From assembly GCA_963771175.1 (NCBI GenBank), contig CAVYSY010000056.1:32001-96000 (forward strand): DNA of 64,000 bases, read 5' to 3'. The stretch comes from an uncultured delta proteobacterium. GTDB taxonomy: Bacteria > Myxococcota > Myxococcia > Myxococcales > Myxococcaceae. The notes beneath the pieces were generated by a model, which ran no database searches, was not told where the DNA came from, and saw only the letters and a list, made by a program, of their open reading frames with translations. This document shows, piece after piece, positions 36,577 to 50,797 of the stretch. A program made the translations under genes and the position numbers. Every line of letters begins with the position of its first letter. Position 1 is the stretch's first letter.

Positions 36577-37494
36577 TCACAACGCGACGCCCTCTGGCGG
36601 GGCCTGGCGGGCCCCACCCCTCCCCCGCATCTCCAACTCGAACCGGGCCCCCTCATCCCGAGGCAGCGCACCGGTGACGACGACGAGCCATCCCCACCCA
36701 CCGGGAGGGAGTGACTCGGGCTCCATGCGAAGGGCCCGCACCTCCACCTCGCCTCCTCCCCCCGCGTGATGCACCCGAACCGCGCCGGGCTCCCAGGGCC
36801 GCAGCGGATCGGGATTCCTCACCCTCACCACGAAGCCGGACAGTCCTCCCGCGTGGAACGGGCGCCGCTCCAGCTCGAGCCCCGCGCCCGGACGCCAGAG
36901 CGCCGACGTCACGTCCAAGGACATGCGCTCGGAGCGTCCGGCGAGTCCCAACATCACCTCCGCGAGCCGGCCGGCCCGCCCCTCGCCCCCACGGGCCCGC
37001 TGCCGCTCCGGCCACTCCGCGCGCCCCTCCCGCAGCCCACGCAGGTGCTCACGCCATGCCGTGGACACGAGTGCCAGGCGGCGCGGCTCGCTCCTCGCGA
37101 CGCGCACCTGCACGTCCACCTCGGTGGGGCTGGCGACGAGCACGAAGGGCAACCGCGTGCCCTCCGCGAGCACCACTTGGAGTGTCACCTGCTCGCCCGC
37201 TGGGAGTTCCTCGCGGGGCGTGACGACGAGGAAGTCATTGCCCAGCAGCAGGGGCTCGAAGCGCCCATGCGTGTCGTGCAGACGCGTGCGCACCGCGTCC
37301 AGGGCGGTGTCGAAACGGAGCCGCGTCGCCGTCCGGGCGGCCACACGCACCTCCTCGACCCGACCCGACCCCGTGACAGCACGCAGCCTCGGCTTTCGCC
37401 CCTCCGGCTGCGCCTCCACCCCCGACGCGGAGACACGCATGGCGACCAGGACCAGCATGACGCAAAAAGTCATCCCGGTGTGTCCTGACCTCAT
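36577..37494 (-). CDS. DUF2381 (TIGR02268-like) myxobacterial family protein
   Basis: EVRVAA..AT.LRFD..L, L.V.LAEGTRLPFVLV..EVDVQVRV, VRVRNPD..PW, LPPGG.G.LVV, F.LE..GGAR pattern. Confidence 0.75.
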   Translation of the reverse strand: MRSGHTGMTFCVMLVLVAMRVSASGVEAQPEGRKPRLRAVTGSGRVEEVRVAARTATRLRFDTALDAVRTRLHDTHGRFEPLLLGNDFLVVTPREELPAGEQVTLQVVLAEGTRLPFVLVASPTEVDVQVRVARSEPRRLALVSTAWREHLRGLREGRAEWPERQRARGGEGRAGRLAEVMLGLAGRSERMSLDVTSALWRPGAGLELERRPFHAGGLSGFVVRVRNPDPLRPWEPGAVRVHHAGGGGEVEVRALRMEPESLPPGGWGWLVVVTGALPRDEGARFELEMRGRGGARQAPPEGVAL

Positions 37495-37695
37495 GCATCA
37501 CATAACCTAACAAGCAAGGCGGAAGGTGGGGAGGGCTGAAGTTGGATTACGTGAACCCACCAACTCAGACCAGAGGGTGAGGCCCATGTAATTCATCATC
37601 CTCACGCATTGCGTCACAAACCCTCGAACAGGGCGGGAACGGCGAAACCCGCAAGGGATTGTTTGACCGGCGAGAAAGGGCTGGGCTATCAAATA

Positions 37696-37716
37696 TGAAA
37701 ATTGATTCAGTCGTCA
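37696..37716. promoter_or_regulatory. Putative TetR operator, copy 1
   Basis: TGAAAATTGATTCAGTCGTCA matches TGAA-N4-GAwTC-N4-kTCA, also present at 47698. Confidence 0.6.
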
Positions 37717-37847
37717 CTTTCAGCTTCGTCGGCATGCGGTGAGTGCACTGGGAGCAAGAGGCGGCTCTCGACGCACTGCGCGACGAAGATGATTTTCATC
37801 AAGCGGGGCCTGGCGCCTCGCGCAACAACCCCGAAGGAGCGGCGCAG

Positions 37848-38903
37848 ATGACCCAACCAGCCCGAGTCGTGGAGCAGCGCGACATCCAGACGAAGCGGCT
37901 CACCATGCACGTGCGCACCACTGGTGAGGACGGCTTTCCGGTGGTGTTCGTGCATGGCAACTGTTCCTCCTCCGCCTTCTTCGGAACCCTGATGGCGCGC
38001 CTGCCCAAGGGGCTGCGCGGCATCGCCCCGGACCTGCGCGGCTACGGCGACACCGAGCCCAAGCCCATCGACGCCACGCGCGGCATGCGCGACCACAGCG
38101 ACGACGTGGCCTCGCTGATGGAGGCGCTCTCCATTCCGCGTGCCCTCTTCGTGGCCCACTCGGCGGGCGCGGGCGCGGTGATGCAGCTCGCCATCGACCA
38201 CCCGGAGCGCGTGGTGGGCCTGGTGCTGGAGGCCCCCGTCTCCCCGTTTGGCTTCGGCGGCACGCGGGATGCGGACGGCACCCCCTGCTGGCCGGACTTC
38301 GCGGGCTCGGGTGGCGGCACCGCCAACCCCGACTTCGTGCAGCGCCTGGCGAAGAAGGACCGCTCGGCGGAGAGCCAGACGTCCCCGCGCAACGTGATGA
38401 ACGGCTGCTACGTGAAGCCGCCCTTCAAGGCGCCCAACGAGGAGGCGCTGCTGGACTCGGTGCTCTCCACCCGCGTGTCGGACGTGCACTACCCCGGCAC
38501 CTTCGAGCAGAGCCCCAACTGGCCGGGCGTCGCCCCGGGCACCACGGGGATGAACAACTCCTTCGCGCCCAAGTACTTCAACCTGAGCGCGTTCGCCTCG
38601 CTCGCCCAGAAGCCGGACGTGCTGTGGATTCGCGGCGCGGATGACGTCATCGTCTCCGACACCTCGCTCTTCGACTTCGGCTACCTCGGCAAGCTGGGCG
38701 CCATCCCCGGCTGGCCCGGCGAGGACAAGTACCCGCCGCAGCCGATGGTCAGCCAGACGCGCAAGCTCTTCGAGCGCTACGCGGCCAATGGTGGGCACTT
38801 CCGCGAGGAGGTGCTCGTGGACACCGGCCACAGCCCGCACGTGGAGAGGCCGCAGGAGTTCGAGCGGCTCGCCTTCCCGTTCCTCCAGGAGCACGCCCGC
38901 TGA
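37848..38903 (+). CDS. Alpha/beta hydrolase (cytoplasmic)
   Basis: VVFVHGN, APDLRGYG, AHSAG nucleophile elbow, GADD, GHSPHVE. Confidence 0.88.
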   Translation: MTQPARVVEQRDIQTKRLTMHVRTTGEDGFPVVFVHGNCSSSAFFGTLMARLPKGLRGIAPDLRGYGDTEPKPIDATRGMRDHSDDVASLMEALSIPRALFVAHSAGAGAVMQLAIDHPERVVGLVLEAPVSPFGFGGTRDADGTPCWPDFAGSGGGTANPDFVQRLAKKDRSAESQTSPRNVMNGCYVKPPFKAPNEEALLDSVLSTRVSDVHYPGTFEQSPNWPGVAPGTTGMNNSFAPKYFNLSAFASLAQKPDVLWIRGADDVIVSDTSLFDFGYLGKLGAIPGWPGEDKYPPQPMVSQTRKLFERYAANGGHFREEVLVDTGHSPHVERPQEFERLAFPFLQEHAR

Positions 38904-38991
38904 AGTCGCGCTCGGGCGCGCCGGCCCCGTGCTGGCGCGCCCTCCCTGTCTCTCCCCGTCGTCGGAATCCCCATGCAGTGATGGAGGTCAT

Positions 38992-40935
38992 ATGAAGACG
39001 TCATTGAAGCTGTCGCTCTCCGCGGCGGCGCTGCTGACCGCGCCCCTGGCCGGAGCCGCCCTACCCACGGACCTGGCCCCGTATTTCGATACCAACGCCG
39101 CACCGGCCAACACCTACCGGGTCGTCGGGACGTACACGCCCCCGAGCTGGTCCTGGGGTCAGATCGAGCTGCTCGAGGGCCAGCAGCTCTTCCGCACCGA
39201 GTACTACAACCGCCGCACGGAGAAGCTGCGCGACCAGGACACCTACCAGTCCTCCCAGTATGCGCTGCGCACGTATTTCGGCTCGCTCAACCAGCAGCTC
39301 GTGAACGGGTTCAACCTCTACTACAACAACACCTGTGCCACGACGGCGGGGAGCACCTGCCCGGTGCCGGGCCCCACCCGCCCCGAGGCGCGCTTCGTGC
39401 TGCTGCACAAGGGCCCGAAGACGGCGGCGCGCACCTGCAACGTGAACCTGACGCCCACGCTGCTGGTACACGGCGCCATGCAGGACGGCAACGTGTGGCT
39501 CTTCCCCAACGGCAACGACGGGACGGGCAGCGCGTACGGCGGCGCCTCGCAGGTGACGGGCTTCGTGCAGGACCTGGAGACGAAGGGCCGCTGCGTGTAC
39601 GCCGTCACCTTCGGCTCCTTCCACGGTGACAACTTCAGCCAGGCCACCAACGTGGCCAACGCGGTGAAGCGCATCAAGGCGCTGCACCCGGGTGTGGCGC
39701 GCGTGGACGTGGTGGGGTGGAGCAAGGGCGTGGTCTCGGTGGACGCGTGGCTCACCAACGCCCCCACCTGGACGGGCTTCAGCACCACGCGCTTCTTCGA
39801 GCGCATGGCGGCGGAGCAGGCCAAGGCGGTGCCGGCCTATGACGACTCGGTGCGCACCTACGTGGCGCTGAGCGGGCCGCACAAGGGCATCGACCTGAAC
39901 TTCCGCCACCCCATCCACACGCTCACCATCCCCAGCACCTCGAACAACGCGCCGGTGGGCCGCGGCCCCATGCCGTGGACGTACTTCTCCGCCTTCCAGT
40001 GCGTGAACTGGGGCCCGGACGTGCCCTGGTACAACAACCCCTACGCGGAGAGCGTGTGCGAGGGCTCCGGCGGCACCTGGCCGGACTACTTCCGCCGCAT
40101 CTACGTCTCCAACATCACCAGCCTGGACTCCACCGGCAAGCCCGTCACCGGCGGCACGCTGCAGACGCTGAACGTGAACCAGGGCGTGTCCTCGAGCTCG
40201 TTCAACTTCGACGAGTTCAACATGAGCCTCTTCGGCAGCGTGAACGACAGCGGCAAGTACGTGAACGCCTTCGTGGGCCAGCTCCAGGTGGCGGAGGATC
40301 TGCGGAGCCTCTACCCCATCCCGGACCGCAGCGCCTCCGCGTGGGATGACGTGGACCAGGACGAGGCGCGCTACTTCCCGTGGGTGGACCAGAAGCTCGT
40401 CTACAACCCGTACAACCCGTTCATCGCGGCGGGCTACCTGAACAACACCCACACCCAGTGCAAGTCGACGGCGTTCGATCCGGTGGGCAGCCCCTGCTAC
40501 GCCTACCACGCGTACAACACCAACCAGAACCGCGAGGGCTACGACTCGCTGGGCTATGCCAAGTACCGCATCATCCAGAGCCTCGGCATGGCGGCGGCCA
40601 AGGAGATGGGCGGCAAGTTCATGACCCGGCTGGCCGAGCGCGGCCTGGACTCGCGGCTGCCCTCGCTCTACGTCCTCTACGGCACCACGTACGGGGCGAC
40701 CACGGACACGCGCTTCGAGACGGACGGCATGACCTGCACCACCTGCTCGGTGAATGGTGACGGCGTGCTGTTCAACGCGAGCATCGCCGCGGTGAACCAG
40801 CTCACCCAGGGCTGGACGACCACCAAGAAGACCGCGGACTCCAAGCAGGAGGGCGTGCCCTACGGTCACCTCGAGGTGGGTGTCACCCCGGCCGTCTGGA
40901 GCAAGATCTCCACCCACTTCGCCTCGCGCGACTGA
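38992..40935 (+). CDS. Large secreted lipase/esterase-family alpha/beta hydrolase
   Basis: GGAGG RBS, signal peptide, LLVHGA, VDVVGWSKG (GxSxG), LSGPHKG, GDGV, GHLE. Confidence 0.8.
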   Translation: MKTSLKLSLSAAALLTAPLAGAALPTDLAPYFDTNAAPANTYRVVGTYTPPSWSWGQIELLEGQQLFRTEYYNRRTEKLRDQDTYQSSQYALRTYFGSLNQQLVNGFNLYYNNTCATTAGSTCPVPGPTRPEARFVLLHKGPKTAARTCNVNLTPTLLVHGAMQDGNVWLFPNGNDGTGSAYGGASQVTGFVQDLETKGRCVYAVTFGSFHGDNFSQATNVANAVKRIKALHPGVARVDVVGWSKGVVSVDAWLTNAPTWTGFSTTRFFERMAAEQAKAVPAYDDSVRTYVALSGPHKGIDLNFRHPIHTLTIPSTSNNAPVGRGPMPWTYFSAFQCVNWGPDVPWYNNPYAESVCEGSGGTWPDYFRRIYVSNITSLDSTGKPVTGGTLQTLNVNQGVSSSSFNFDEFNMSLFGSVNDSGKYVNAFVGQLQVAEDLRSLYPIPDRSASAWDDVDQDEARYFPWVDQKLVYNPYNPFIAAGYLNNTHTQCKSTAFDPVGSPCYAYHAYNTNQNREGYDSLGYAKYRIIQSLGMAAAKEMGGKFMTRLAERGLDSRLPSLYVLYGTTYGATTDTRFETDGMTCTTCSVNGDGVLFNASIAAVNQLTQGWTTTKKTADSKQEGVPYGHLEVGVTPAVWSKISTHFASRD

Positions 40936-40957
40936 CGCGAAGGCGGGGTGAAGTACG

Positions 40958-40989
40958 AGGCGGATGCCGGCACGCGCTGGCATCCGCCT
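40958..40989. terminator. Hairpin between convergent genes
   Basis: aggcggatgccggc-acgc-gctggcatccgcct 14-bp stem. Confidence 0.7.
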
Positions 40990-40992
40990 TCT

Positions 40993-42006
40993 TCATTCCA
41001 GGCCCTTCAGGAACGCGAGCACCCGCGGGTTGTAGTCCTGGGGGCAGTCCATCTGCACGGTGTGGCCGCACCGCTCCAGACCCACGAGCTTCGAGCCCCG
41101 GATATGCTCGTGCCCGTACGCCATGATGTCGCGCGCCTCGCCCCCGTGGAGGAAGGGATTGGGGATGAGGCGGTCATCCTCGCCATGGATGATGAGCGTG
41201 GGGACGGTGATGCGGCCGAGGCTGTCGCGCACGAAGTCGTTGTGGGCCAGGCCGTTCACCGTGCGCACGTTGGCGTAGGCATACGCGTCGAACTCGGGGC
41301 TCTTGGCGACGCGCACCCGCTCCTCGATGAGCCAGTTGAGCTCCGGCCGCCAGCGCTCGAAGTTGGACTGACGCACGCTGCCCCAGATGCCGTACTCGGA
41401 CGAGCCCTTGACGAGCGCGGTGCTGAAGGAGCGCTTGAACCAGGCCTTCTCCTTGGGGCTGAACTTCTCGAAGCCCGCGGGGGAAGTGAGCACGAGCGCC
41501 TTCACGTCCTCCGGATAGCGGAGGGCATACGAGAGCGACGTCTGCCCGCCCATGGAGTGCCCCACGAGGATGGGCTTGTCCGCGCCCACCTTCTGGGCGA
41601 GCTCGTGGACCGCATCCGCCATGGCCTCCATGGTGTAGGGGAAGGAGGCCGGCTTGTCGGACTTGCCGTAGCCGGGCAGGTCCACGGCGATGACGCGGTA
41701 GCCCTGCTCGGCGAAGGTGTCGAGCTGGTAGCGCCAGAACTTCAGGTACGAGCCCAACCCGTGGATGAAGAGAACGGTCTGCGTCCCCTCGGGATTGAGC
41801 TCGACGTAGGCGACCTCGGGCACGAGCGCCATGCCATGGGCGGCGGCCGTGTCGGGGAGGGCGAGCCGCTTCACGGGCCAGGGCTTGCCCTCGGGCGAGG
41901 AGTAGTCGAGGTCCTGGAAGGACAGCGGGGGGCGCGCGTTGTACGAGGTGACGCACCCGGTGGAGAGGCCCGCCAGCGCGAGCAGGCCCAGAGCACGAGT
42001 CTTCAT
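40993..42006 (-). CDS. Alpha/beta hydrolase lipoprotein
   Basis: LSTG-C lipobox, FIHGLG, DLPGYG, GHSMGG, HGEDD, CGH. Confidence 0.88.
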   Translation of the reverse strand: MKTRALGLLALAGLSTGCVTSYNARPPLSFQDLDYSSPEGKPWPVKRLALPDTAAAHGMALVPEVAYVELNPEGTQTVLFIHGLGSYLKFWRYQLDTFAEQGYRVIAVDLPGYGKSDKPASFPYTMEAMADAVHELAQKVGADKPILVGHSMGGQTSLSYALRYPEDVKALVLTSPAGFEKFSPKEKAWFKRSFSTALVKGSSEYGIWGSVRQSNFERWRPELNWLIEERVRVAKSPEFDAYAYANVRTVNGLAHNDFVRDSLGRITVPTLIIHGEDDRLIPNPFLHGGEARDIMAYGHEHIRGSKLVGLERCGHTVQMDCPQDYNPRVLAFLKGLE

Positions 42007-42008
42007 GG

Positions 42009-43673
42009 TCAGAACGCGTACCAGGTGAAGGTGGTGAAGGCGGCCCACGGGTTGGCCGTGACGCGCGGATTGCCGTCGTAGAAGTTGCCGCGAATCATGT
42101 AGCCGCCGTGCAGGCCCACGGTCATGAGGTAGCGGATGGTGTAGCGGAGCTCGGCGTTCACCTCGGTGCCAATCAGGCGGCCCCGAGCCACCCCCGGCGT
42201 CTCCTCGGGCGGGGTGACGCTGCTGGCAGCGACGGCCGCGCCCAGCTTGAGGTTGAGCTTGTTGGGGATGAGGTCATACGCGCCGGTGGCGATGACCGTC
42301 TGGAGACCGTAGCCCTGGTTGGAGATGTCCGTCACCGCGCCCGTGTAGTTGTTGACGGTGCTGGTGAAGGGGAACAGGACGAGCATCTTGTGGTTGAACC
42401 ACACCGCGCCCGGCAGGCCGTACTGGTTGAGGGTGAAGGCGCCGGTGTAGCGGCTGTCGGCCAGGTCCGAGTCGCCCGTGGAGAACATGCCCTCGAGCGT
42501 CACCAGGTCACTGCTGGTGCGCCCGAAGTTGTAGAGCAGCTCCAGGTTGGCGGAGAGGCCATCGACGTCCACCTCCTGGTTGAGGGTGGTGTCCGCCCGG
42601 TTGGAGACGAACTGGCCCCGGTTGTACATGAGGAAGCCGGAGGCGCCGAACCGGCCGGTGCGGAAGTCGATGTTGTGGTTGAAGTTGAGGCCCGCCCAGC
42701 CGACCCAGCCCGTGGGCCGGTCGATCGACAGCCGCGGCGCGCCGGTGAAGTTGCCCAGGCTGCTGGAGGACGGGCCGCTCTTCACCAGGCCCTCGAAGGC
42801 GTAGGCATCGCCCTTGGTGTTGTCGCGCAGGAACCACAGCGACGCGCCCACGTTCGTCCCGGGCGCCACCGGGTAGGTGTAGTCGGCCATGCCCAGCCAG
42901 ACGAACTTGAGCCGAGGGTCGTTGAACTCCGCCTTGTCCGCCTGCACGCTGCCCAGCGGCAGCAGGCTCAGGCGCGACTGGCCCTTGAGGTAGTTGCTGA
43001 AGACGGACAGGCCCGTGGCGTCACTGCCCAGGAAGGCCAGCTTGTAGCCGGTCCGGATGAGCTCGTTGAGCGGCGTGCGCGTCGGGTCGTAGACCGAGTC
43101 GTAGACGGGCTGAGTGCCAATCAGCAGGGTGAGCTGGCTGGGATTCTTCGTCGGGTAGAGGGCGACGTTGAGATTCTTCGTCTGGAGGTTGACCTGGTCG
43201 GCGTTGAAGCCGCCACCCTCGTTCTGCTGCACGGCATTGGCCGAGCGGCCCCAGAGGAAGTCCACCTCGAACTGGGCGCGGAAGCTGGCCAGCCCATCCA
43301 CGAAGAACGGGCTGTATTCGATGACCGGAATCCAGCGCTGCTCGACGTAGAAGGCCGGGGCGTTCTCCACGCGCACGGCGCTGCCGGCCACCTGGCCGAT
43401 GGGGCCCAGCGACACGCCCTTGAGGCCCGTTGGATCCCCGAGCTGGTTGGTGGCCGAGAGGCGGGTGAAGAAGTAGTTGATGAGGACGAACTCGCGAGGC
43501 TCCGCGTCCTGCTCGCGATTCTTGGCCTCGTACCAGTCGGCGTAGGCCCCGGGCAGCGGGGTGCTCTGTCCCCAGGCGGGGAAGGAGAGCCCGGCCGAGC
43601 CCAGGGCCAGCGCCAGCGCGCATCCGCGTACCACGGTCCCTCGTGTTGCGTCAGGAAGCCACCGCCACGACAT
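42009..43673 (-). CDS. Probable outer membrane porin-like beta-barrel
   Basis: Signal peptide, amphipathic strands, GTEVNAELRY, C-terminal FTWYAF. Confidence 0.7.
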   Translation of the reverse strand: MSWRWLPDATRGTVVRGCALALALGSAGLSFPAWGQSTPLPGAYADWYEAKNREQDAEPREFVLINYFFTRLSATNQLGDPTGLKGVSLGPIGQVAGSAVRVENAPAFYVEQRWIPVIEYSPFFVDGLASFRAQFEVDFLWGRSANAVQQNEGGGFNADQVNLQTKNLNVALYPTKNPSQLTLLIGTQPVYDSVYDPTRTPLNELIRTGYKLAFLGSDATGLSVFSNYLKGQSRLSLLPLGSVQADKAEFNDPRLKFVWLGMADYTYPVAPGTNVGASLWFLRDNTKGDAYAFEGLVKSGPSSSSLGNFTGAPRLSIDRPTGWVGWAGLNFNHNIDFRTGRFGASGFLMYNRGQFVSNRADTTLNQEVDVDGLSANLELLYNFGRTSSDLVTLEGMFSTGDSDLADSRYTGAFTLNQYGLPGAVWFNHKMLVLFPFTSTVNNYTGAVTDISNQGYGLQTVIATGAYDLIPNKLNLKLGAAVAASSVTPPEETPGVARGRLIGTEVNAELRYTIRYLMTVGLHGGYMIRGNFYDGNPRVTANPWAAFTTFTWYAF

Positions 43674-43723
43674 ACGTGTCTCGTCTCCAGAGGGGGTAGA
43701 GGATGCGCGCCGTATACGCCGTT

Positions 43724-44317
43724 TTACTGGGCGACGAACGTCTGCACGGCGTTACCGGTGAAGGCCGCGCCGTTGAGCGTCACCGTCGCCGCGCCCACCG
43801 CGCCGTCCGCGCAGCGGTGACCCTTGGCCTGGCCGGAGAAGAAGAGCTCCAGCTTGAGCGTCTTGCCATCCGCGCTGAGGCTGCCACGGCCCTCCTGGGC
43901 GAAGCCGTTGTAGGTGAACGTGGCGTCGAAGCAGCTCAGGTCCTCCTTGGCGTTCTCGATGAGCGCGACCGTGGAGGTGAACTGCGCCGTCGCACCCGCG
44001 GCGTCGTGGTCACAGATGCCCATGTTGAACTTCTGGGGCGCGTCGCGCAGGGTGCCCAGAACGCTGGTGACGGTATAGGTGCCGTTGCCCACCTGCATGG
44101 TGCTCTTGCTGTAGCACTGGGTGGCGCCCTCGAGGTTCATGTCCTCGTTGAAGCCATTGGGGTGGCTGGGGATGTTCGCCCCGTCCATCACCAGCGTCTT
44201 GCCCTCGAGCCTGGTGGCCACCTGCTTGTTGGGATCCACCGGCACCGGCTCCACCGGATCGCAGCCCACCAGCCCCATGGCACACAGCATCATCGCGGAC
44301 AGCAGTTGCTTCTTCAT
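43724..44317 (-). CDS. Lipoprotein of unknown function
   Basis: MKKQLLSAMMLCAMGLVG-C lipobox; AGGAG RBS. Confidence 0.8.
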   Translation of the reverse strand: MKKQLLSAMMLCAMGLVGCDPVEPVPVDPNKQVATRLEGKTLVMDGANIPSHPNGFNEDMNLEGATQCYSKSTMQVGNGTYTVTSVLGTLRDAPQKFNMGICDHDAAGATAQFTSTVALIENAKEDLSCFDATFTYNGFAQEGRGSLSADGKTLKLELFFSGQAKGHRCADGAVGAATVTLNGAAFTGNAVQTFVAQ

Positions 44318-44438
44318 GTGATGGCTCCTCTCCCCCGGCATGTGCCGGCTCGACAAACTCGTCCCGTGTCTGGTGGAAGTCCCCGCGTCCGCGCGAGGAC
44401 TCCCTCCAGTGTGGACCTTCACTCGATGTCGACGTGAC

Positions 44439-45993
44439 TCAGCGCGACGCGGCGTCGGCCGCGATGGCCTGCGCGCGCAACTCGCGCTTGAGAATCTTCC
44501 CCGCCGCGGACACAGGCAGGGACTGCACCAGGTCCACCCGCTTCGGCACCTTGAAGCGCGCCACCCGGCCGCGCAGGTGCTCCAGCAGCGCCTCGGACGT
44601 GGCCTGCGCACCGGGCTTCAGCACCACGAAGGCGCGCCCCACCTCGCCCCACTTCGCGTCGGGCACCCCCACCACCGCGCAGGACTGCACGGCGGGGTGC
44701 TCGTAGAGCGCCGTCTCCAGCTCCAGCGGGTACACGTTCTCTCCGCCGGAGATGTACATGTCCTTCTTGCGCCCGTTGATGAAGAAGAAGCCGTCCGCGT
44801 CCCGGTGCGCCAGGTCCCCCGTGTGGAACCAGCCATCCTTGTCGATGGCCTCGGCGGTGGCCTCGGCGTTCTCGAAGTACCCCGAGCCCATGGAGGGGCC
44901 CTTGAGGACGAGCTCGCCCGTGGCGCCCTCGGGCACGTCGCGGCCGTCGTCATCCACCAGCCGCGCGTCGATGAAGTAGTTGGGCCGGCCGATGGAGCCG
45001 GCCTTGGACACGGCGAACTCGGGGCCCATGCTGAAGATGCCGGGGCCGAACTCCGTCATGCCGAAGCCCTGCTTGAAGGGCACCGCGTGCACCGCCTGCC
45101 ACGCCTGCAGCAGCGGCACCGGCAGCGGCGCGCCACCGCTCGTCACGAAGCGCACGGTGGAGAGGTCCGCCGAGCGGAAGCGCGGCGAGTCATACATCTG
45201 CTGGTACTGCGTGGGCACCGCGAAGAAGAGCGTCACCTTCTCGCTGCTCCACCAGCCGCAGCATCTCGTCCGCGTCCCAGCGACGCATCAGCACCACCGT
45301 GCCGCCGCAGGTGAGCAGCGGCACCGTGTAGACGAGCAGCCCGCCCGTGTGGAACAGGGGCGTGTGCGTCACCGTGACGTCCCCGGGCCGCAGCTCGTGG
45401 ATGAGCGTGTTGAGCGTGTTCCACGCCACCATCCGGTAGCTGATGCGGGCGCCCTTCGACTTGCCCGTGGTGCCGCCGGTGAAGAGCAGGCAGATGATGT
45501 CCTCCTCGCTCACCTGCTCGTTCGTCACCTTCGTCGAGGACGTGTGCGCGAGCAGCTCGGCATAGGGGCGGCTCTCGGGCAGCCCCTGCCCCTCCAGGTG
45601 GACGAGCTTCAGCGACGCGCCCACCTGCTTGCCCACGGCCGCGACGCTCTCGCGGAAGTCATCGCTGAAGAGGAGCACGCGCGGGCCGGTGTCGCGCACC
45701 AGCTCCGCCAGCTCCTGCGCGTGCAGGCGCCAGTTGTAGGGGACGAGGGTGGCGCCCAGCTTGCCGCAGGCGAAGAAGACATCCAGGAACTCCACGCCGT
45801 TGTGGGCCACGAGGCCCACCCGGTCTCCCCGGGACACGCCGGCCACGTCGCGCAGCCAGCCCGCGAGCGCCTCGGCACGCGCGTTCATCGCGCGGTAGGT
45901 GAAGCGGCCGGCCGCTCCCTTGGCCACATCCACTACCGCGGTGTGCTCGGGCCAGTACATGGCCCCACGACCCATCCAGTCGCCGATGAACAT
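44439..45993 (-). CDS. Acyl-CoA synthetase (AMP-binding), one frameshift at ~45243
   Basis: FTGGTTGKSKG, PLFHTGG, QGFGMTE, WFHTGD, SGGENVYP, GKILK. Confidence 0.9.
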
Positions 45994-46036
45994 GTGTCGT
46001 CCCCTCCCCTTCAGTGCGTCAGTGTTCCAGACTCGC

Positions 46037-47032
46037 TCAGGCCGTCCAGCGGTAGAGCGCCGAGGCCATGGCCAGACCGCCGCCGCTGGCGCACAGGGCG
46101 ATCAGGTCGCCCTTCTTCACCTTGCCCTGCACCACCGCGTCATCCAGCGTCATCGGGATGCAGGCCGAGCCGGTGTAGCCCCACTTGTCCATGGTGTAGT
46201 GCGCCTTGGACATGGGCTGCTCCAGCACCTTCATCGTGGCCTCGATGGTGCGCAGGTTGAGCTGGGTGAAGACGAACTGACTCACGTCGTTCATCGACAG
46301 ATCGGCCCGCTCCAGGAGCTGCTTGAGCAGCATGGGCCAGCGCTCGGTGTTGAAGGTCGCGGGGAACTTGCGCACGAACTGCACCGCGGGCTTGCCGTTG
46401 GTGAGCGCCAGCGTCTCCGCCGTGGCCGGCCGGTAGGTGCCGCCCGTGTAGACGCCCAGCGCGTCGTGGTACTCGCCGGCCGCCAGCAGCTTCGCGCCCA
46501 TGAAGCCGGGCTTGTCACTGGCGCCCAGCACCACCGCGCCCGCGCCGTCCGCGAAGAGCGTGCAGGTCTTCTTGTCCTTCCAGTTGATGTACCGGGACAT
46601 CCCGTAGGCGCCCAGCACCAGCACGCGCTTGTAGCTGTCGTCCGCGGAGATGGTCTTGCTCGCCACGTCCAGCGCCGTCACCCAACCCGCGCACGCGGCG
46701 TTGATGTCGTACGTGCCCGCGTTGCTCGCACCCAGCTTCGCCTGCACCGCCGAGGACGTGCCCGGGCTCAGGTAGTCCGGCGTGTCCGTGGCCACGATGA
46801 CGAGGTCCAGCTCGCTCGGCTTCACGCCCGCGCGCTCCAGCGCCTGCTTCGCGGCCTCCACGCACAGGTCGCTCGTCACCTGGTTGTCCGCCATCAGGTG
46901 GCGCTGCTTGATGCCCACGTTCTGCTGAAGCCACTCGTCCACCGGCTCGCCGATGATGCGCTCCACGTCGGCGTTGGTGAGGACCTTCTCGGGGACGTAA
47001 CGGCCAGTGGCCAGGATGTTGGCGTACCTCAT
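46037..47032 (-). CDS. 3-oxoacyl-ACP synthase III-like protein, non-canonical active site
   Basis: TGRYVPEKVLTN, AACAG (Cys), LFADGAGA, GGG; FTQLN and GYTG replace HQAN and GNTS. Confidence 0.85.
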   Translation of the reverse strand: MRYANILATGRYVPEKVLTNADVERIIGEPVDEWLQQNVGIKQRHLMADNQVTSDLCVEAAKQALERAGVKPSELDLVIVATDTPDYLSPGTSSAVQAKLGASNAGTYDINAACAGWVTALDVASKTISADDSYKRVLVLGAYGMSRYINWKDKKTCTLFADGAGAVVLGASDKPGFMGAKLLAAGEYHDALGVYTGGTYRPATAETLALTNGKPAVQFVRKFPATFNTERWPMLLKQLLERADLSMNDVSQFVFTQLNLRTIEATMKVLEQPMSKAHYTMDKWGYTGSACIPMTLDDAVVQGKVKKGDLIALCASGGGLAMASALYRWTA

Positions 47033-47712
47033 CTGCTCCTGCTCCGCGGGACTCGGGGCTTGCGTGCCCCCTTCCCGCTCTCGGTGTCGGCCCCGGCCGG
47101 ACTCACGTCCAGGCCGTGGCGAATGAAATCCATCGCGGTGTCCAGCACGCGCTCCACGTCGCCCTCTCCCGCCCACAGCACCCAGCGCATGCCCAGGAAG
47201 TCGCTCAGGCCCATCAGGCAGTAGGCCAGCGCCTCCGGGTCCATGCGCCGCACCTCGCCCGCGGCCATGGCCTGCTCGAGGCCCGACACGTACCCATGGG
47301 CGAAGCGGTCGTAGTAGCGACGGAAGCACGCCTCGTCGACGAACTCGGCCTGGCGCACAATCCGGTACAGGCGGGGGTGGCGGCCCACGAACTCGAAGAA
47401 GGTGCGCAGTCCCGCGCGCTCCACTTCAATCCGGTTCTCGCACCCCACCACCGCCTCGGCGATGAGCCGGCGCAACCGCGCGCCCAGCTCGTCCACCACC
47501 TCGACGAAGAGGGACTGCTTGTCCGGGAAATAGACGTAGAAAGTTCCGAGCGCTACCTCCGCTTCGCGGGTAATGTCCGCGATGGAGGCGCGCTCGTACC
47601 CCTTCTCTCCGAATACGGTCTCCGCCGCCTGCAGGAGGCGCAGGCGCGTGCGCTGTCCCCTGGGGGTCGCGGGCACGAGGCGCTCGGCTGGCGGAGTTGA
47701 AGACCGATTCAT
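47029..47712 (-). CDS. TetR/AcrR family transcriptional regulator
   Basis: TRLRLLQAAETVFGEKGY..ASIADIT..GTFYVYFPDK HTH; ATGA coupling to the KAS III gene. Confidence 0.92.
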   Translation of the reverse strand: MNRSSTPPAERLVPATPRGQRTRLRLLQAAETVFGEKGYERASIADITREAEVALGTFYVYFPDKQSLFVEVVDELGARLRRLIAEAVVGCENRIEVERAGLRTFFEFVGRHPRLYRIVRQAEFVDEACFRRYYDRFAHGYVSGLEQAMAAGEVRRMDPEALAYCLMGLSDFLGMRWVLWAGEGDVERVLDTAMDFIRHGLDVSPAGADTESGKGARKPRVPRSRSR

Positions 47713-47718
47713 CTTTCA
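47698..47718. promoter_or_regulatory. Putative TetR operator, copy 2, overlapping the tetR start codon
   Basis: TGAAGACCGATTCATCTTTCA imperfect palindrome. Confidence 0.6.
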
Positions 47719-47816
47719 TATTGCGTAACACCCCCCTCGCGGTATTGTCAAAAACTGTCATTCATTCGCTGGCGCGCGGACATGCAACGCATTGCGTCAG
47801 CCGGGAGAGGGAACGC

Positions 47817-48563
47817 ATGCAGCTCAAGGACTTGAAGGTCATCGTCACGGGCGGAGCCCAGGGAATGGGCGCTCACTTCGCCACGCGCCTGCACGAGGCC
47901 GGCGCCCAGGTCGCCGTGGGAGACGTGAACGAGGAGCGGCTCGCCGAGCTGCCCGCGGGCATCCACCGCCGCCGCCTGGACGTGTCCAAGGAGGAGGAGG
48001 TCATCTCCTTCGTCCAGTGGGCCCACGAGTCCATGGGTGGCCTCAACGGCCTCATCAACAACGCGGGCATCCTCCGCGACTCGCTGCTGGTGAAGAAGGA
48101 CCGCACCACCGGTGAGGTGAAGAAGCTGTCCACCGCGGACTGGAACGCCGTCATCGGCGTCAACCTCACCGGCGCCACCTTCATGGTGCGCGAGGTGGTG
48201 GCGAAGATGGTGCAGACGGATCAGAAGCCCGGCGTCATCGTCAACATGAGCTCCATCGCCCGGCACGGAAACCGCGGGCAGAGCAACTACGTGTCCGCCA
48301 AGGCCGCGCTCGCCGCCAACACCTTCACCTGGGCGCGCGAGTTCGCCTCCTTCGGCATCCGCGTGGGCGCCGTCGCCCCGGGCATGGTGGAGACGCCGAT
48401 GACGCAGGGCATGAACCAGAAGGCCCGCGACGCGCTGGTGGCCAACATCCCCGTGGGCCGCATCGGCCTGCCCGAGGATCTGTGGCTGGCGGTGAAGTTC
48501 GTCCTCGAGTGCGACTACTTCAACGGCCGCACCATCGACGTGGACGGCGGCCTCACCATGTAG
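47817..48563 (+). CDS. SDR family oxidoreductase (FabG/PhaB-like)
   Basis: TGGAQGMG, NNAGILRD, NYVSAK (YxxxK), APG, VDGG. Confidence 0.9.
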   Translation: MQLKDLKVIVTGGAQGMGAHFATRLHEAGAQVAVGDVNEERLAELPAGIHRRRLDVSKEEEVISFVQWAHESMGGLNGLINNAGILRDSLLVKKDRTTGEVKKLSTADWNAVIGVNLTGATFMVREVVAKMVQTDQKPGVIVNMSSIARHGNRGQSNYVSAKAALAANTFTWAREFASFGIRVGAVAPGMVETPMTQGMNQKARDALVANIPVGRIGLPEDLWLAVKFVLECDYFNGRTIDVDGGLTM

Positions 48564-48935: not shown

Positions 48936-49334
48936 TCAGGTGTACATCTCGAGGCTCGCGGCGCGGCCGGCATCGAAGTGCGGCGAACGCTGGAGCTGCT
49001 CCAAGACCCGGGGCGTGCAGTAGAGCGTCACCAGGGGAGTGGAACCGGGCTCGCTCATGCCCTTCACCGCGCCCATCAGGTGGTGCGCCTGGAGGAAGTC
49101 GAGGAGCGAGTCACGAAACTGCCTGCTCTGCTCGCAGGCGTGCTTGTGGACGAGCGACCGGTCCCGCATCGGCGAGGGCTGCCAGGTCGCACCGGGTACC
49201 TCCCGGGGCATGACCATGACCTCGATCCACCCCGGCGAGCTCTCCACCCGAAGGCCCGGGAGGGGAGTGACGCCAGCGATCTTTGGAAAACGCCCGGATG
49301 CCCGGCGCTGCGAGGTGGCTGTCTTCCTGCTCAT
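48936..49334 (-). CDS. popD: PopD-like inhibitor of PopC
   Basis: Small gene directly downstream of popC; I9-inhibitor-like C-terminus (VTLYCTPRVLEQLQ); position matches M. xanthus popCD. Confidence 0.7.
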   Translation of the reverse strand: MSRKTATSQRRASGRFPKIAGVTPLPGLRVESSPGWIEVMVMPREVPGATWQPSPMRDRSLVHKHACEQSRQFRDSLLDFLQAHHLMGAVKGMSEPGSTPLVTLYCTPRVLEQLQRSPHFDAGRAASLEMYT

Positions 49335-49392
49335 CCCACTTCCTCCACCCAGGCCCGGCGCTCGCGATGGCGCCGGCCCTGGTAGCCGCCAT

Positions 49393-50797
49393 TCACTTGT
49401 AGACCGCAAGACCCCGTCCGCCACGATTGGCAGGCGTCTTGGGCAGCTTCAGCGCATTGTCCAGAATCAAATCCCTGACTTCGAGTAGCCGTCAAGTCCG
49501 GGGAACGGCAGCGATATAGCGCCGCGATTCCCGCGACGTAAGGGGCGGCCATGCTCGTTCCGCTCATTCGTTCATAGAACGCCTGGTTGTTACACCTTCG
49601 TTCTGTGCTCGAGTAGACGTTCACGCCGTAACCCATCAGGTCAGGAACAGATCGCTGATTCACCACGCCACTGGCGGAGAAATTGGCCACGCGACGCGCG
49701 AAGTCGACCGCCCCCACGGCCAGGGACTCAGGGAAGGCCGCTGGGTAGCCCGCCGTCCCGGCGCCCGCATTCCCGGCCGCCACCACCGGCAGCACGTTGG
49801 AGTCCACCAGCCGGCGCAGCAGCGTCTGCAGGGCCCGGATGTTCAGGCGGTACTCCATGTCGCTCACACCGGGAGGCGGCTGCACGGGGAACCCCAAGGA
49901 CATGTTCACCACCGCGGGGCGGGTGGCGTTCTCAGGACGTGAGAACTGGTGTAGCAGCCATTCCATACCGGCCGCCACTCGTCCCAGGCTGGTTCGTATG
50001 CTTTCGGACTCGATGACCGAGGCGACGTAGAGGTCCACCTCGGGAGCAACGCCGTGGTAGGTGCCGGCGGCGATGCCGGACACATGGGTGCCGTGCCCGT
50101 CCGGGTCGAAGCCGCGCACGTCTCGCGCCGGATTGTGCGGCGAGTTGGGGAAGAGCGAGACGTAGCGGAACTGGATGAGGCGGTTCTGGTGCTCGGGGTG
50201 GTCCGCGTCCACGCCGGTGTCGAGGATGCCGAGCATCACGCCGGCGCCGCGCACGCCCTGGGCATGGGCCGAGTGGACGCCGCACTCCTCGGGCCACTCG
50301 CGCCGCTGGAGCGAGGACAGGCCCTGGTTGCGCGGGCCGAGCTGCCCCGCGGACACCGGGCCCGGGAAGGTGAGCTGCACCACGTCCGGGATGAACTCGA
50401 AGTCGCGCCCGAGCTCCTCCTTGGCCACGCGCTCGGCTTCGTCCGAGGTGAAGTGGGCCATGGTGGCGCCGATGAGCGGCATGTGACGGTAGGTGCCCAC
50501 CTCCGAGGCGGTCGCCGGCTCCATCACCGGGCCCTCGGACGCGGCCACCTGGAGCTCGTTCTTGCGGCCCCGGCCCTTCTTCTTCTTCGCGGGCGAGGCG
50601 CTCACCTGGGGCAGACGCCCGGGCAGCGTGGCGGAGCGCATCCCGAGGCTCCGCAGCATGTCCGGGGCCCGTCCGCTGATCATGAACTGAAGGGCGGTGG
50701 TGCGCTGCAGCACGCGCTCTCCCTGCTCCGTGCCCCGCACGCCCGGATGAGCGTGGGTCTCGATCGACTCCTTCGGAACCAGGAGATAGGACTTCAT
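49393..50797 (-). CDS. popC: Subtilisin-like serine protease PopC; +1 indel near 49487 hides the true stop at 49393
   Basis: No signal peptide, N-terminal MKSYLLVPKESIET prosegment, ILDTGVD, HGTHVSG, AAGN, SGTSMAAP; corrected C-terminus ..GRGLAVYK*. Confidence 0.85.

Follow-up and report, generated by a model that had tools for sequence, protein, structure and literature searches.

Polymer-utilisation loci of the SusC/SusD type pair a surface binding lipoprotein with an outer-membrane channel. The logic of such loci, comprising a secreted depolymerase, a binding lipoprotein, a dedicated channel, a periplasmic trimming enzyme and a local regulator, is shared by a gene cluster located between positions 37603 and 48563 of a 64,000-nucleotide stretch of DNA (the window) from an uncultured member of the Myxococcaceae (contig CAVYSY010000056.1). 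The cluster differs from the SusC/SusD type in that its outer-membrane protein, called D here, is no TonB-dependent transporter (554 residues, outside any Pfam family), its lipoprotein E is not SusD-like and the pairing of E with D is putative. Among the closest described systems are enzymes that act on poly-3-hydroxybutyrate (PHB). Classical extracellular PHB depolymerases consist of a catalytic domain, a linker and a substrate-binding domain, and PhaZ7 is specific for amorphous PHB. Bdellovibrio uses the polyhydroxyalkanoate (PHA) of its prey. We know of no account of the route by which PHB breakdown products cross the outer membrane of Gram-negative bacteria, nor, to our knowledge, has it been established whether myxobacterial predators exploit the storage polymers of their prey. 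We propose, with moderate confidence and from comparative sequence evidence, that the cluster is a TetR-repressed, prey-inducible regulon that would scavenge an extracellular ester polymer, most likely PHB or 3-hydroxybutyrate (3HB) oligomers released from lysed prey. Its general logic is known; the new parts are D, E, a ketoacyl synthase III (KAS III)-like protein that keeps only the active-site Cys, and an interchangeable esterase slot.

The locus is the counterpart of MXAN_0211 and MXAN_0214-0221 of Myxococcus xanthus. In strain DK1622 the genes for TetR, KAS III, ligase, lipoprotein, outer-membrane protein and lipoprotein hydrolase follow in the same order, and proteins of M. xanthus-type loci are 68-86% identical to those of the window. 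Two differences are apparent: a 332-residue PhaZ7-like gene and a Zn-dehydrogenase gene stand at the place of genes A and B of the window, and two unrelated genes separate the short-chain dehydrogenase (SDR) gene from the TetR gene. The genes for DUF2381/TIGR02268 and PopD put the organism in the Myxococcaceae. It is an Archangium-like myxobacterium, and the closest named records of D come from Archangium gephyra (90% identity). The genome to which the window belongs measures 9.8 Mb, in an assembly of 58 contigs that is 81.7% complete. Open frames are abundant because the window has about 69% G+C, and genes were therefore taken to be frames with a third-position G+C of 0.86-0.97 that also had family matches. 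All ten genes listed in the original prediction were recovered at their coordinates in this way, with third-position values in that range. The cluster comprises the following features:

37603..37615, no strand: operator-like palindrome, copy 1, CACGCATTGCGTC, about 230 nt 5' of gene A, in surroundings that resemble the TetR promoter
37848-38903, plus: A, predicted cytoplasmic alpha/beta hydrolase of 351 residues counted from the second ATG; Pfam Abhydrolase_6/_1, AHSAG nucleophile elbow, without signal peptide
38992-40935, plus: B, predicted secreted alpha/beta hydrolase of 647 residues; signal peptide, Ser244 in W-S-x-G
40993-42006, minus: C, predicted lipoprotein alpha/beta hydrolase; lipobox LSTGC, GHSMG, starting 2 nt past the stop of D
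42009-43673, minus: D, outer-membrane protein of 554 residues; signal peptide, C-terminus ...FTWYAF, without Pfam family
43724-44317, minus: E, lipoprotein of 197 residues; predicted lipocalin-like small beta-barrel with four invariant Cys, without Pfam match
44439-45993, minus: F, predicted adenosine monophosphate (AMP)-forming acyl-coenzyme A (acyl-CoA) ligase; two open reading frames (45190-45993 and 44439-45236) as assembled
46037-47032, minus: G, KAS III-like protein of 331 residues; Cys kept, His replaced by Thr and Asn by Tyr
47029-47712, minus: TetR-family regulator of 227 residues, whose stop overlaps the start of G
47786..47798, no strand: operator-like palindrome, copy 2, AACGCATTGCGTC, 86 nt 5' of the TetR ATG and about 20 nt 5' of the SDR ATG
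47817-48563, plus: SDR, predicted FabG-like classical short-chain dehydrogenase of 248 residues, divergent from TetR

A profile of D retrieved 76 loci with flanks of up to 10 kb from records of Archangium, Myxococcus, Pyxidicoccus, Corallococcus, Hyalangium, Citreicoccus, Anaeromyxobacter, Polyangiaceae and Bradymonadia. In 71 of these loci E, D and C share one strand, and the remaining five are interrupted by contig ends. These three, a lipoprotein (E), an outer-membrane protein (D) and a lipoprotein hydrolase (C), form the invariant core of the system. Across the phylum, 76 of 301 genomes sampled encode D, among them 61 of 115 from the family of the window and 6 of 39 and 8 of 20 from two further families; in the window's own genome D and E are each present in a single copy. 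The TetR-KAS-ligase module precedes the core in 32 loci and is rearranged yet still linked in six more, either as TetR-KAS without a ligase upstream (four loci) or as KAS-ligase downstream of C (two loci). No such module was seen at the E-D-C loci of Corallococcus or in many metagenome-assembled genomes. About half of the loci carry E-D-C without KAS or ligase. A record titled Comamonas sp. KCTC 72670 (locus L054) holds a Myxococcus-type locus of the same synteny, with a PhaZ7-like gene 91% identical to the M. xanthus type, so that either the organism name is apparently wrong or the assembly is contaminated.

A secreted esterase is encoded beside the core in 57 of the 76 loci (44 of the 55 with full flanks), and its kind varies as follows:

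32 of 76 loci: Lipase_2 (PhaZ7-like) protein, convergent to C
24 of 76 loci: Esterase_PHB catalytic domain (at least 180 bits)
1 of 76 loci: B-type esterase
19 of 76 loci: no esterase seen (8 with short flanks, 11 with full flanks)

The esterase families that fill this slot are rare, with just two PF10503 and two PF01674 matches in the window's 9.8-Mb genome. Among solved structures, the Lipase_2-type neighbour of the Myxococcus and A. gephyra loci has PhaZ7 as its best relative (E 8e-20, with AHSMG kept), compared with about 2e-3 for Bacillus lipase A. A second copy of the operator-like palindrome described below accompanies this gene in most Myxococcus and Pyxidicoccus loci. Five Esterase_PHB neighbours were scored with NF050058, the model for extracellular type-1 short-chain-length PHA depolymerases (cut-off 150 bits), and all five pass, at 259-333 bits (L019 317, L066 264, L040 260, L041 265 and L044 333).

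The link between E and PHB depolymerases is closest in seven loci (L039, L041, L042, L043, L068, L070 and a truncated case in L079), in which E is the C-terminal domain of proteins that combine an esterase with Big_7 domains. The fusion proteins at these loci measure 859-975 residues, two of them with lipoprotein signals. A search of 5.8 billion proteins for longer carriers of E returned 21. Fourteen of them, of 465-965 residues, consist of twelve with PF10503 and immunoglobulin (Ig)-like domains and two with Ig-like domains only, whereas the other seven are about 386 residues long and without annotated domain; no other fusion partner of E was found among the 21. The E-family proteins of about 386 residues (L016:3941-5206; P0241-P0247) reach about twice the bits of a single domain and may represent a tandem double E domain in Hyalangium-like genomes. 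Because of the fusions, E can be placed at the position of the substrate-binding domain of classical PHB depolymerases. The neighbouring esterases share with these enzymes the type-1 catalytic domain and the Ig-like linkers, and the C-terminal binding domain is replaced in the fusions by E, a domain of about 165 residues predicted to be lipocalin-like. Unlike in classical depolymerases, E is mostly a separate lipoprotein gene directly 5' of the gene for the outer-membrane protein. An AlphaFold model of E (mean predicted local distance difference test (pLDDT) score 91.6) is a small beta-barrel. Its best structural neighbours are Tp0751 (Z 8.3), RBP4 (7.2) and Blc (6.5), Z scores that fall within the range of common arrangements, and its ESM Atlas neighbours are named lipocalin-like (0.90). 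The lipocalin-like fold is thus a lead from modelling.

By the profiles searched, D and E are of no described protein family. None of twelve D-family members examined has a Pfam family or matches the alginate-export porin family PF13372 at E <= 10, and the D profile has no match among solved structures. In the ESM Atlas, 17% of the members of one D-related protein cluster carry the alginate-export porin family, which serves as a lead only. The D orthologue MXAN_0219 is listed among proteins detected in the outer-membrane fraction (PMC3222651, Table 3). A complex prediction for D (residues 36-554) with E (26-197) gave no answer (score 0.00), which counts neither for nor against binding.

Further connections to PHB come from the gene neighbourhoods. 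PhaR (PHB_acc_N) is encoded within 10 kb of the core in five loci. The genome of the window contains a second locus of PHB type, on contig 30 at about 213-221 kb (L085:5349-13585). Its predicted products include a type-1 extracellular depolymerase of 966 residues with three Big_7 domains (NF050058, 339 bits), a 3-hydroxybutyrate dehydrogenase (BdhA; TIGR01963, 344 bits against a cut-off of 307), a metabolite/H+ symporter of the major facilitator superfamily (MFS) and two 529-residue reading frames of no known kind, the first with a weak Lipase_2 match. Orthologues of this depolymerase (72% and 67% identity) adjoin E-D-C in L017 and L027. BLASTP of B against the two 529-residue frames gave no similarity. 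As assembled, the MFS symporter gene (L085:12305-13585, minus strand) is split into two open reading frames, one matching the C-terminal and the other the N-terminal half of the same models. Elsewhere in the genome (C14:23585-27061 and C26:288129-291608), PhaC_N has two weak partial matches (30 bits), each about 3 kb from an SDR that reaches about 180 bits with the PHB_DH model; possibly these are PHA-synthase-like loci of the predator itself.

Transcriptome data for M. xanthus DK1622, grown alone or with Sinorhizobium meliloti, are available in supplementary tables (PMC9548883). The log2 fold changes with prey at 2 h and 6 h are:

MXAN_0211 (SDR): 2.3 and 2.0
MXAN_0214 (TetR): 1.8 and 1.7
MXAN_0215 (KAS): 2.7 and 3.3
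MXAN_0216 (ligase): 3.0 and 3.1
MXAN_0217 (E): 3.7 and 3.2
MXAN_0219 (D): 3.7 and 3.2
MXAN_0220 (C): 3.4 and 3.1
MXAN_0221 (PhaZ7-like): 3.2 and 2.0
MXAN_0222: 0 and 1.7

All orthologues with counts (MXAN_0211, 0214-0217 and 0219-0221) are therefore induced jointly with prey, at log2 values of 1.7-3.7, a finding that supports the original prediction. According to the same tables, MXAN_0212 and MXAN_0213, situated between MXAN_0211 and MXAN_0214, decrease, and the flanking MXAN_0210 and MXAN_0224 stay at 1-16 fragments per kilobase per million (FPKM) throughout, with no consistent increase with prey (PMC9548883). MXAN_0219 occupies row 3 of the 2-h differential-expression table (PMC9548883). 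The prey species has phbABC genes for PHB synthesis (PMC10315480). In the cross-reference table of the transcriptome study the cluster has no entries with dead Escherichia coli prey, and with Streptomyces coelicolor MXAN_0217 is the only one (PMC9548883). The main text of that study discusses only MXAN_0215, 0216 and 0220 from the cluster and contains the terms 'PHB' and 'polyhydroxy' zero times (PMC9548883); it also relates, from earlier work, that MXAN_0220, the orthologue of C, was reported in outer-membrane vesicles. No identifiers of cluster genes occur in the supplement of another study (PMC10196010). In a literature search that left subscription journals mostly outside its coverage, neither an assigned function for the cluster under the MXAN identifiers nor a paper tying PHB depolymerases or PHB degradation to Myxococcus or myxobacteria was found.

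The shared operator motif that had been noted at both operon promoters of the window proved to be real. The 11-mer ACGCATTGCGT has two exact copies in the 64 kb, at 37604 (5' of A) and at 47787 (in the TetR-SDR gap), and the identity of the two copies, read directly, spans the 13-mer ACGCATTGCGTCA. Allowing one mismatch, the 11-mer gives five matches against 0.77 expected, a number reached in none of 100 shuffles. The regions upstream of A and of TetR align with a score of 37 (shuffles average 17.4 and peak at 32, none of 300 reaching 37), and the A upstream region mirrors the TetR promoter in having the palindrome, TTTGAC and caa(a)tatgaaa in that order. The core of the palindrome is GACGC-N3-GCGTC, with constant half-sites and variable spacers. 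Among the 37 loci that have TetR, 18 show it 85-90 nt before the ATG of that gene and one further locus has it at -76 (Archangium and Myxococcus), the half-site pattern extends the set to Pyxidicoccus and Citreicoccus loci, and all three Corallococcus-type loci carry it as well. Second copies of the form GTCGC-N3-GCGTC are intergenic and precede the PhaZ7-like gene at 12 of the 13 Myxococcus/Pyxidicoccus loci and A at L011. None of the Hyalangium or Anaeromyxobacter loci among the 25 scanned has the palindrome at the TetR promoter. An extra operator 5' of E was also considered and dropped: it is absent from the window, and nine of 73 loci have a candidate with at most one mismatch against about five expected. 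The regulator itself clearly belongs to the TetR family (TetR_N PF00440, 53.9 bits, cut-off 24) and it probably binds the palindrome.

Genes A and B flank the core in the window and in only one of the 76 loci, L011 of Archangium lansingense. At three of three Corallococcus-type loci, TetR, KAS, ligase, A and B follow in this order on one strand with a divergent SDR close by, and E-D-C is found at another place in the genome. A is always paired with B, in L011 as in the three Corallococcus-type loci. Because of this linkage, the cytoplasmic module can be seen to occur with A-B, with E-D-C and a PhaZ7-like gene, or with both, as in the window. The view that the two operons belong with the SDR to a single functional unit is thereby supported; A and B, which on the evidence of gene order are part of the system, are accessory to the core. 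The B family comprises about 124 clusters, and every one with a named source is from Myxococcota. Of 201 genomes sampled, 17 contain it, among them 16 of 16 from the genus that supplied the three Corallococcus-type loci. B has no NCBIfam match at E <= 0.001 and does not reach the PhaZ7 model NF050060 (450 bits), and the 5' open reading frame of B has no Pfam family. Compared with PhaZ7, the native-PHB-granule depolymerase of Paucimonas lemoignei (PDB 2vtv, 4brs), B is twice as long, carries GWSKG and stays under every curated threshold. W243, S244 and G246 are invariant among 25 family members. A sequence search of solved structures with B alone gave no match, whereas a profile of the B family matches class-2 lipases and PhaZ7 only (2.7e-4 and 3.7e-4), and for this reason B is regarded as a distant Lipase_2 relative despite its sub-threshold score. 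A usable model of B (predicted template modelling (pTM) score 0.84, pLDDT 75) is an alpha/beta hydrolase with large insertions, with Foldseek E values of about 1e-4 for many lipases. VIA-align places it near monoglyceride lipases (Z 18.9), gastric lipase (17.8) and PhaZ7 (16.4, 250 residues aligned). Since all these lie within 2.5 Z units, the structure search cannot discriminate lipases from PhaZ7, and the structural check proposed along with the original prediction did not single out PhaZ7. On family profiles, B would belong to the class-2 lipase/PhaZ7 group as an enlarged and distant member.

The description of G as an atypical KAS III was confirmed by alignment to solved FabH structures (E 2e-60, 40-odd percent similar, full length). 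The nucleophilic Cys is common to FabH and G, but the His and Asn needed for decarboxylation of malonyl-acyl carrier protein (ACP) are Thr and Tyr in G, with HQAN changed to TQLN and GNTSAAS to GYTGSAC, so that G lacks the Cys-His-Asn triad by which KAS III condensing enzymes are recognized. The Cys/Thr/Tyr pattern is invariant across all 39 orthologues of G (43-94% identity), relocated genes included. L066 and L075 each have a KAS-like gene on the opposite strand that represents another paralogue (25-26% identity). On curated models G scores 267 bits with TIGR00747, below the cut-off of 292, and 294 bits with the subfamily model NF006829, above 249. Because His and Asn are missing in all 39 orthologues, G is probably neither a condensing enzyme nor a thiolase. 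It appears to be a conserved, selected, non-condensing variant, for which a Claisen reaction, be it condensation or the thiolysis that had been suggested as the last step of the pathway, is unlikely and acyl transfer via the Cys would be the economical inference.

Ligase F is present as two open reading frames because of one extra base at 45245/45246, recognized by alignment with relatives and absent from the original prediction. F is intact as a single frame of 516-555 codons, without the extra base, in seven of seven congeneric genomes, and the extra base is likewise absent from contigs of four of four related public runs. At F these runs represent relatives (95-99% identical, other strains than the source), for which reason they cannot decide between error and real change. 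Compared with three A. gephyra-like loci, the base is the sole uncompensated indel within the cluster genes. A sequencing error and a strain-specific pseudogene are both possible. The AMP-binding and AMP-binding_C domains are both encoded, on separate open reading frames and not in one intact frame.

Gene content, conserved linkage, domain fusions, the shared palindrome, the loss of His and Asn from G and the co-induction of the orthologues are direct observations; for the mechanism outlined here, we infer all substrates and directions. A secreted esterase would attack the polymer or granule, with B in this role in the window and a PhaZ7-like or type-1 extracellular PHB depolymerase in relatives. 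The lipocalin-like lipoprotein E would bind polymer or oligomers at the outer membrane and pass them to the barrel D. Oligomers may be trimmed by C, a hydrolase anchored as an outer-membrane lipoprotein, and likewise inside the cell by the cytoplasmic A. Ligase F would activate the acid to its CoA thioester, oxidation of the 3-hydroxyacyl thioester would fall to the FabG-like SDR and the Cys-only G might act as an acyl (thio)ester transferase, with no condensation. TetR is envisaged to occupy GACGC-N3-GCGTC before its own and the esterase operons until it is released by the acyl-CoA product. A more specific version of this scheme, which we consider doubtful at present, is a dedicated myxobacterial 'PHB utilisation locus', in which E serves either as the tail of a depolymerase or as a surface lipoprotein feeding the private channel D, and G and the ligase act on (R)-3-hydroxybutyryl (oligomer)-CoA, by oxo-ester thiolysis that saves bond energy or by transfer of (R)-3HB to ACP as a fatty-acid primer. 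If true, predators equipped with such a locus could take the storage granules of their prey directly as food. Each step has a candidate in the cluster, with D as channel, E as binding lipoprotein, C as trimming esterase, TetR with its operator as regulator and G as unusual non-condensing KAS III, and the uncharacterised families D and E gain a specific hypothesis. Since the orthologues are among the strongest prey-induced genes of the genetically tractable M. xanthus, the question is testable, and the new esterase types are possibly useful for bioplastic degradation.

Several findings weigh against PHB as the substrate or against the proposed pathway as a whole. The 'complete' outside-to-inside pathway of the original prediction is not supported, and no inner-membrane transporter is found among the cluster genes. 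The ligase is frameshifted in the source assembly. Nineteen of the 76 loci have no visible esterase, 11 of them with full flanks. The PhaZ7-like neighbours reach 102 bits on the PhaZ7 equivalog model NF050060, against a cut-off of 450, and the best solved relatives of an Esterase_PHB neighbour are a feruloyl esterase (1e-41) and an acetylxylan esterase, which belong to the same fold family. B scores 18.3 bits on Lipase_2 (PF01674; E 0.0017), under the gathering threshold of 20.3, its nucleophile lies in V-G-W-S-K-G in place of the AHSMG of PhaZ7, and monoglyceride lipases at least equal PhaZ7 as matches of its model. C matches 17 alpha/beta-hydrolase families, its nearest solved relatives are generic hydrolases, and the 3HB-oligomer hydrolase family (Pfam 3HBOH) is not among its Pfam matches. 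The SDR is not a 3-hydroxybutyrate dehydrogenase, with 100.8 bits on TIGR01963 against a cut-off of 307 (contig 56:79838-80428). The best solved relative of F (8weu/8wev, 372 bits) was deposited as a feruloyl-CoA synthetase/fatty-acyl-CoA synthase. The families of the TetR regulator, the ligase, the KAS protein and the SDR are just as characteristic of fatty-acid metabolism, and the enzymatic roles given to the cluster proteins are deductions from their families. The authors of the transcriptome study read the induction of MXAN_0215 and MXAN_0216 as use of prey lipids (PMC9548883). As a result of this counter-evidence, PHB is held as the substrate with moderate confidence only, prey lipid is kept as a possible but less probable one, and the two other readings discussed below are retained as improbable.

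Scavenging of prey lipid stays a live rival, if a rather unlikely one on present evidence. A secreted lipase and a lipoprotein esterase would free fatty acids from triacylglycerol, phospholipid or lipoprotein, E and D would import them in a FadL-like manner, the ligase would form acyl-CoA, the KAS-like transferase and the SDR would lead to lipid metabolism and TetR would sense acyl-CoA. This reading accommodates the names 'triacylglycerol lipase' and 'esterase/lipase family protein' given to B and its relatives by their sources, the proximity of the B model to monoglyceride and gastric lipases (Z 17-19), the lipid-binding kind of fold predicted for E and the presence of FasR, FabR and FadR among the best NCBIfam matches of TetR. 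In line with it, the authors of the transcriptome study propose that MXAN_0216 activates exogenous fatty acids and report that FadL genes go down (PMC9548883). It does not account for the 24 loci whose esterases carry type-1 PHB-depolymerase catalytic domains, not lipase domains, with all five tested above the NCBI cut-off, nor for the fusion of E, where an esterase is annotated, solely to esterases of the PHB-depolymerase family. The PhaR and BdhA links and the far greater nearness of the PhaZ7-like gene to PhaZ7 than to Bacillus lipase A also speak against it. Dead E. coli prey is lipid-rich and PHB-free, and the lack of entries for it in the cross-reference table (PMC9548883) points in the same direction; the argument is weak because experiment and thresholds differ. 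With PHB-depolymerase-type esterases beside the core in 56 of 76 loci and with E fused to such enzymes, the predicted PHB substrate has strong comparative backing and is favoured over lipid without displacing it. In one Anaeromyxobacter metagenome-assembled genome, C is followed not by an esterase but by a prokaryotic diacylglycerol kinase (L038:12823-13698, plus strand), an arrangement that fits lipid use.

Biosynthesis with export is improbable. In this reading the ligase, G and the SDR would make an acylated lipid, an ester or a signal during predation, which E, D and C would export or process at the outer membrane. KAS III-like proteins that lack the residues for decarboxylation typically serve as acyltransferases in secondary metabolism, and the invariance of the Thr/Tyr variant in 39 orthologues fits such a role, as does the alginate-export porin family in 17% of the D-related ESM Atlas cluster. 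Yet the constant partners of the core are hydrolases and secreted depolymerases and not carrier proteins, methyltransferases or other tailoring enzymes, E-D-C dispenses with KAS and ligase in about half of the loci, and disruption of MXAN_0215 is reported to leave the lipid composition unchanged (PMC9548883, citing Curtis 2001 and Bode 2006a).

Slightly less probable still are plant-derived esters, from which esterases of the CE1 type (feruloyl/acetyl esterases) would free hydroxycinnamates or deacetylate oligosaccharides, the imported products being activated by a feruloyl-CoA-synthetase-like ligase. The relatives of the Esterase_PHB neighbour and of the ligase among solved structures agree with this, but no enoyl-CoA hydratase/aldolase or other aromatic-catabolism gene is present in any locus examined, induction occurred in bacterial co-culture with no plant material (PMC9548883), the depolymerase neighbours pass the NCBI PHA-depolymerase model, and the PhaZ7-like and PhaR/BdhA links do not fit. 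An OleABCD olefin/beta-lactone cluster (thiolase-like protein, ligase, SDR and alpha/beta hydrolase) was rejected, since neither His nor Asn is present in G and the hydrolases, which are lipoproteins or secreted, have an outer-membrane protein as partner. OleD is moreover an extended SDR, and the SDR of the cluster is a classical, FabG-like one.

The remaining features of the region concern its flanks and one intergenic gap:

36577-37494, minus: DUF2381 paralogue (DUF2381/TIGR02268), of a Myxococcus paralogous family
48936-50797, minus: PopD- and PopC-like flanking genes, which adjoin the SDR

The PopD-like open reading frame scores 160 bits on NF048005, below the cut-off of 200, and stands beside a PopC-like subtilase. 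In the 88-nt gap between A and B, a G+C-rich inverted repeat with 12-nt arms and a 5-nt loop is located at 38914-38942. The PopD/PopC-like neighbourhood next to the SDR is also kept in Archangium and Hyalangium loci.

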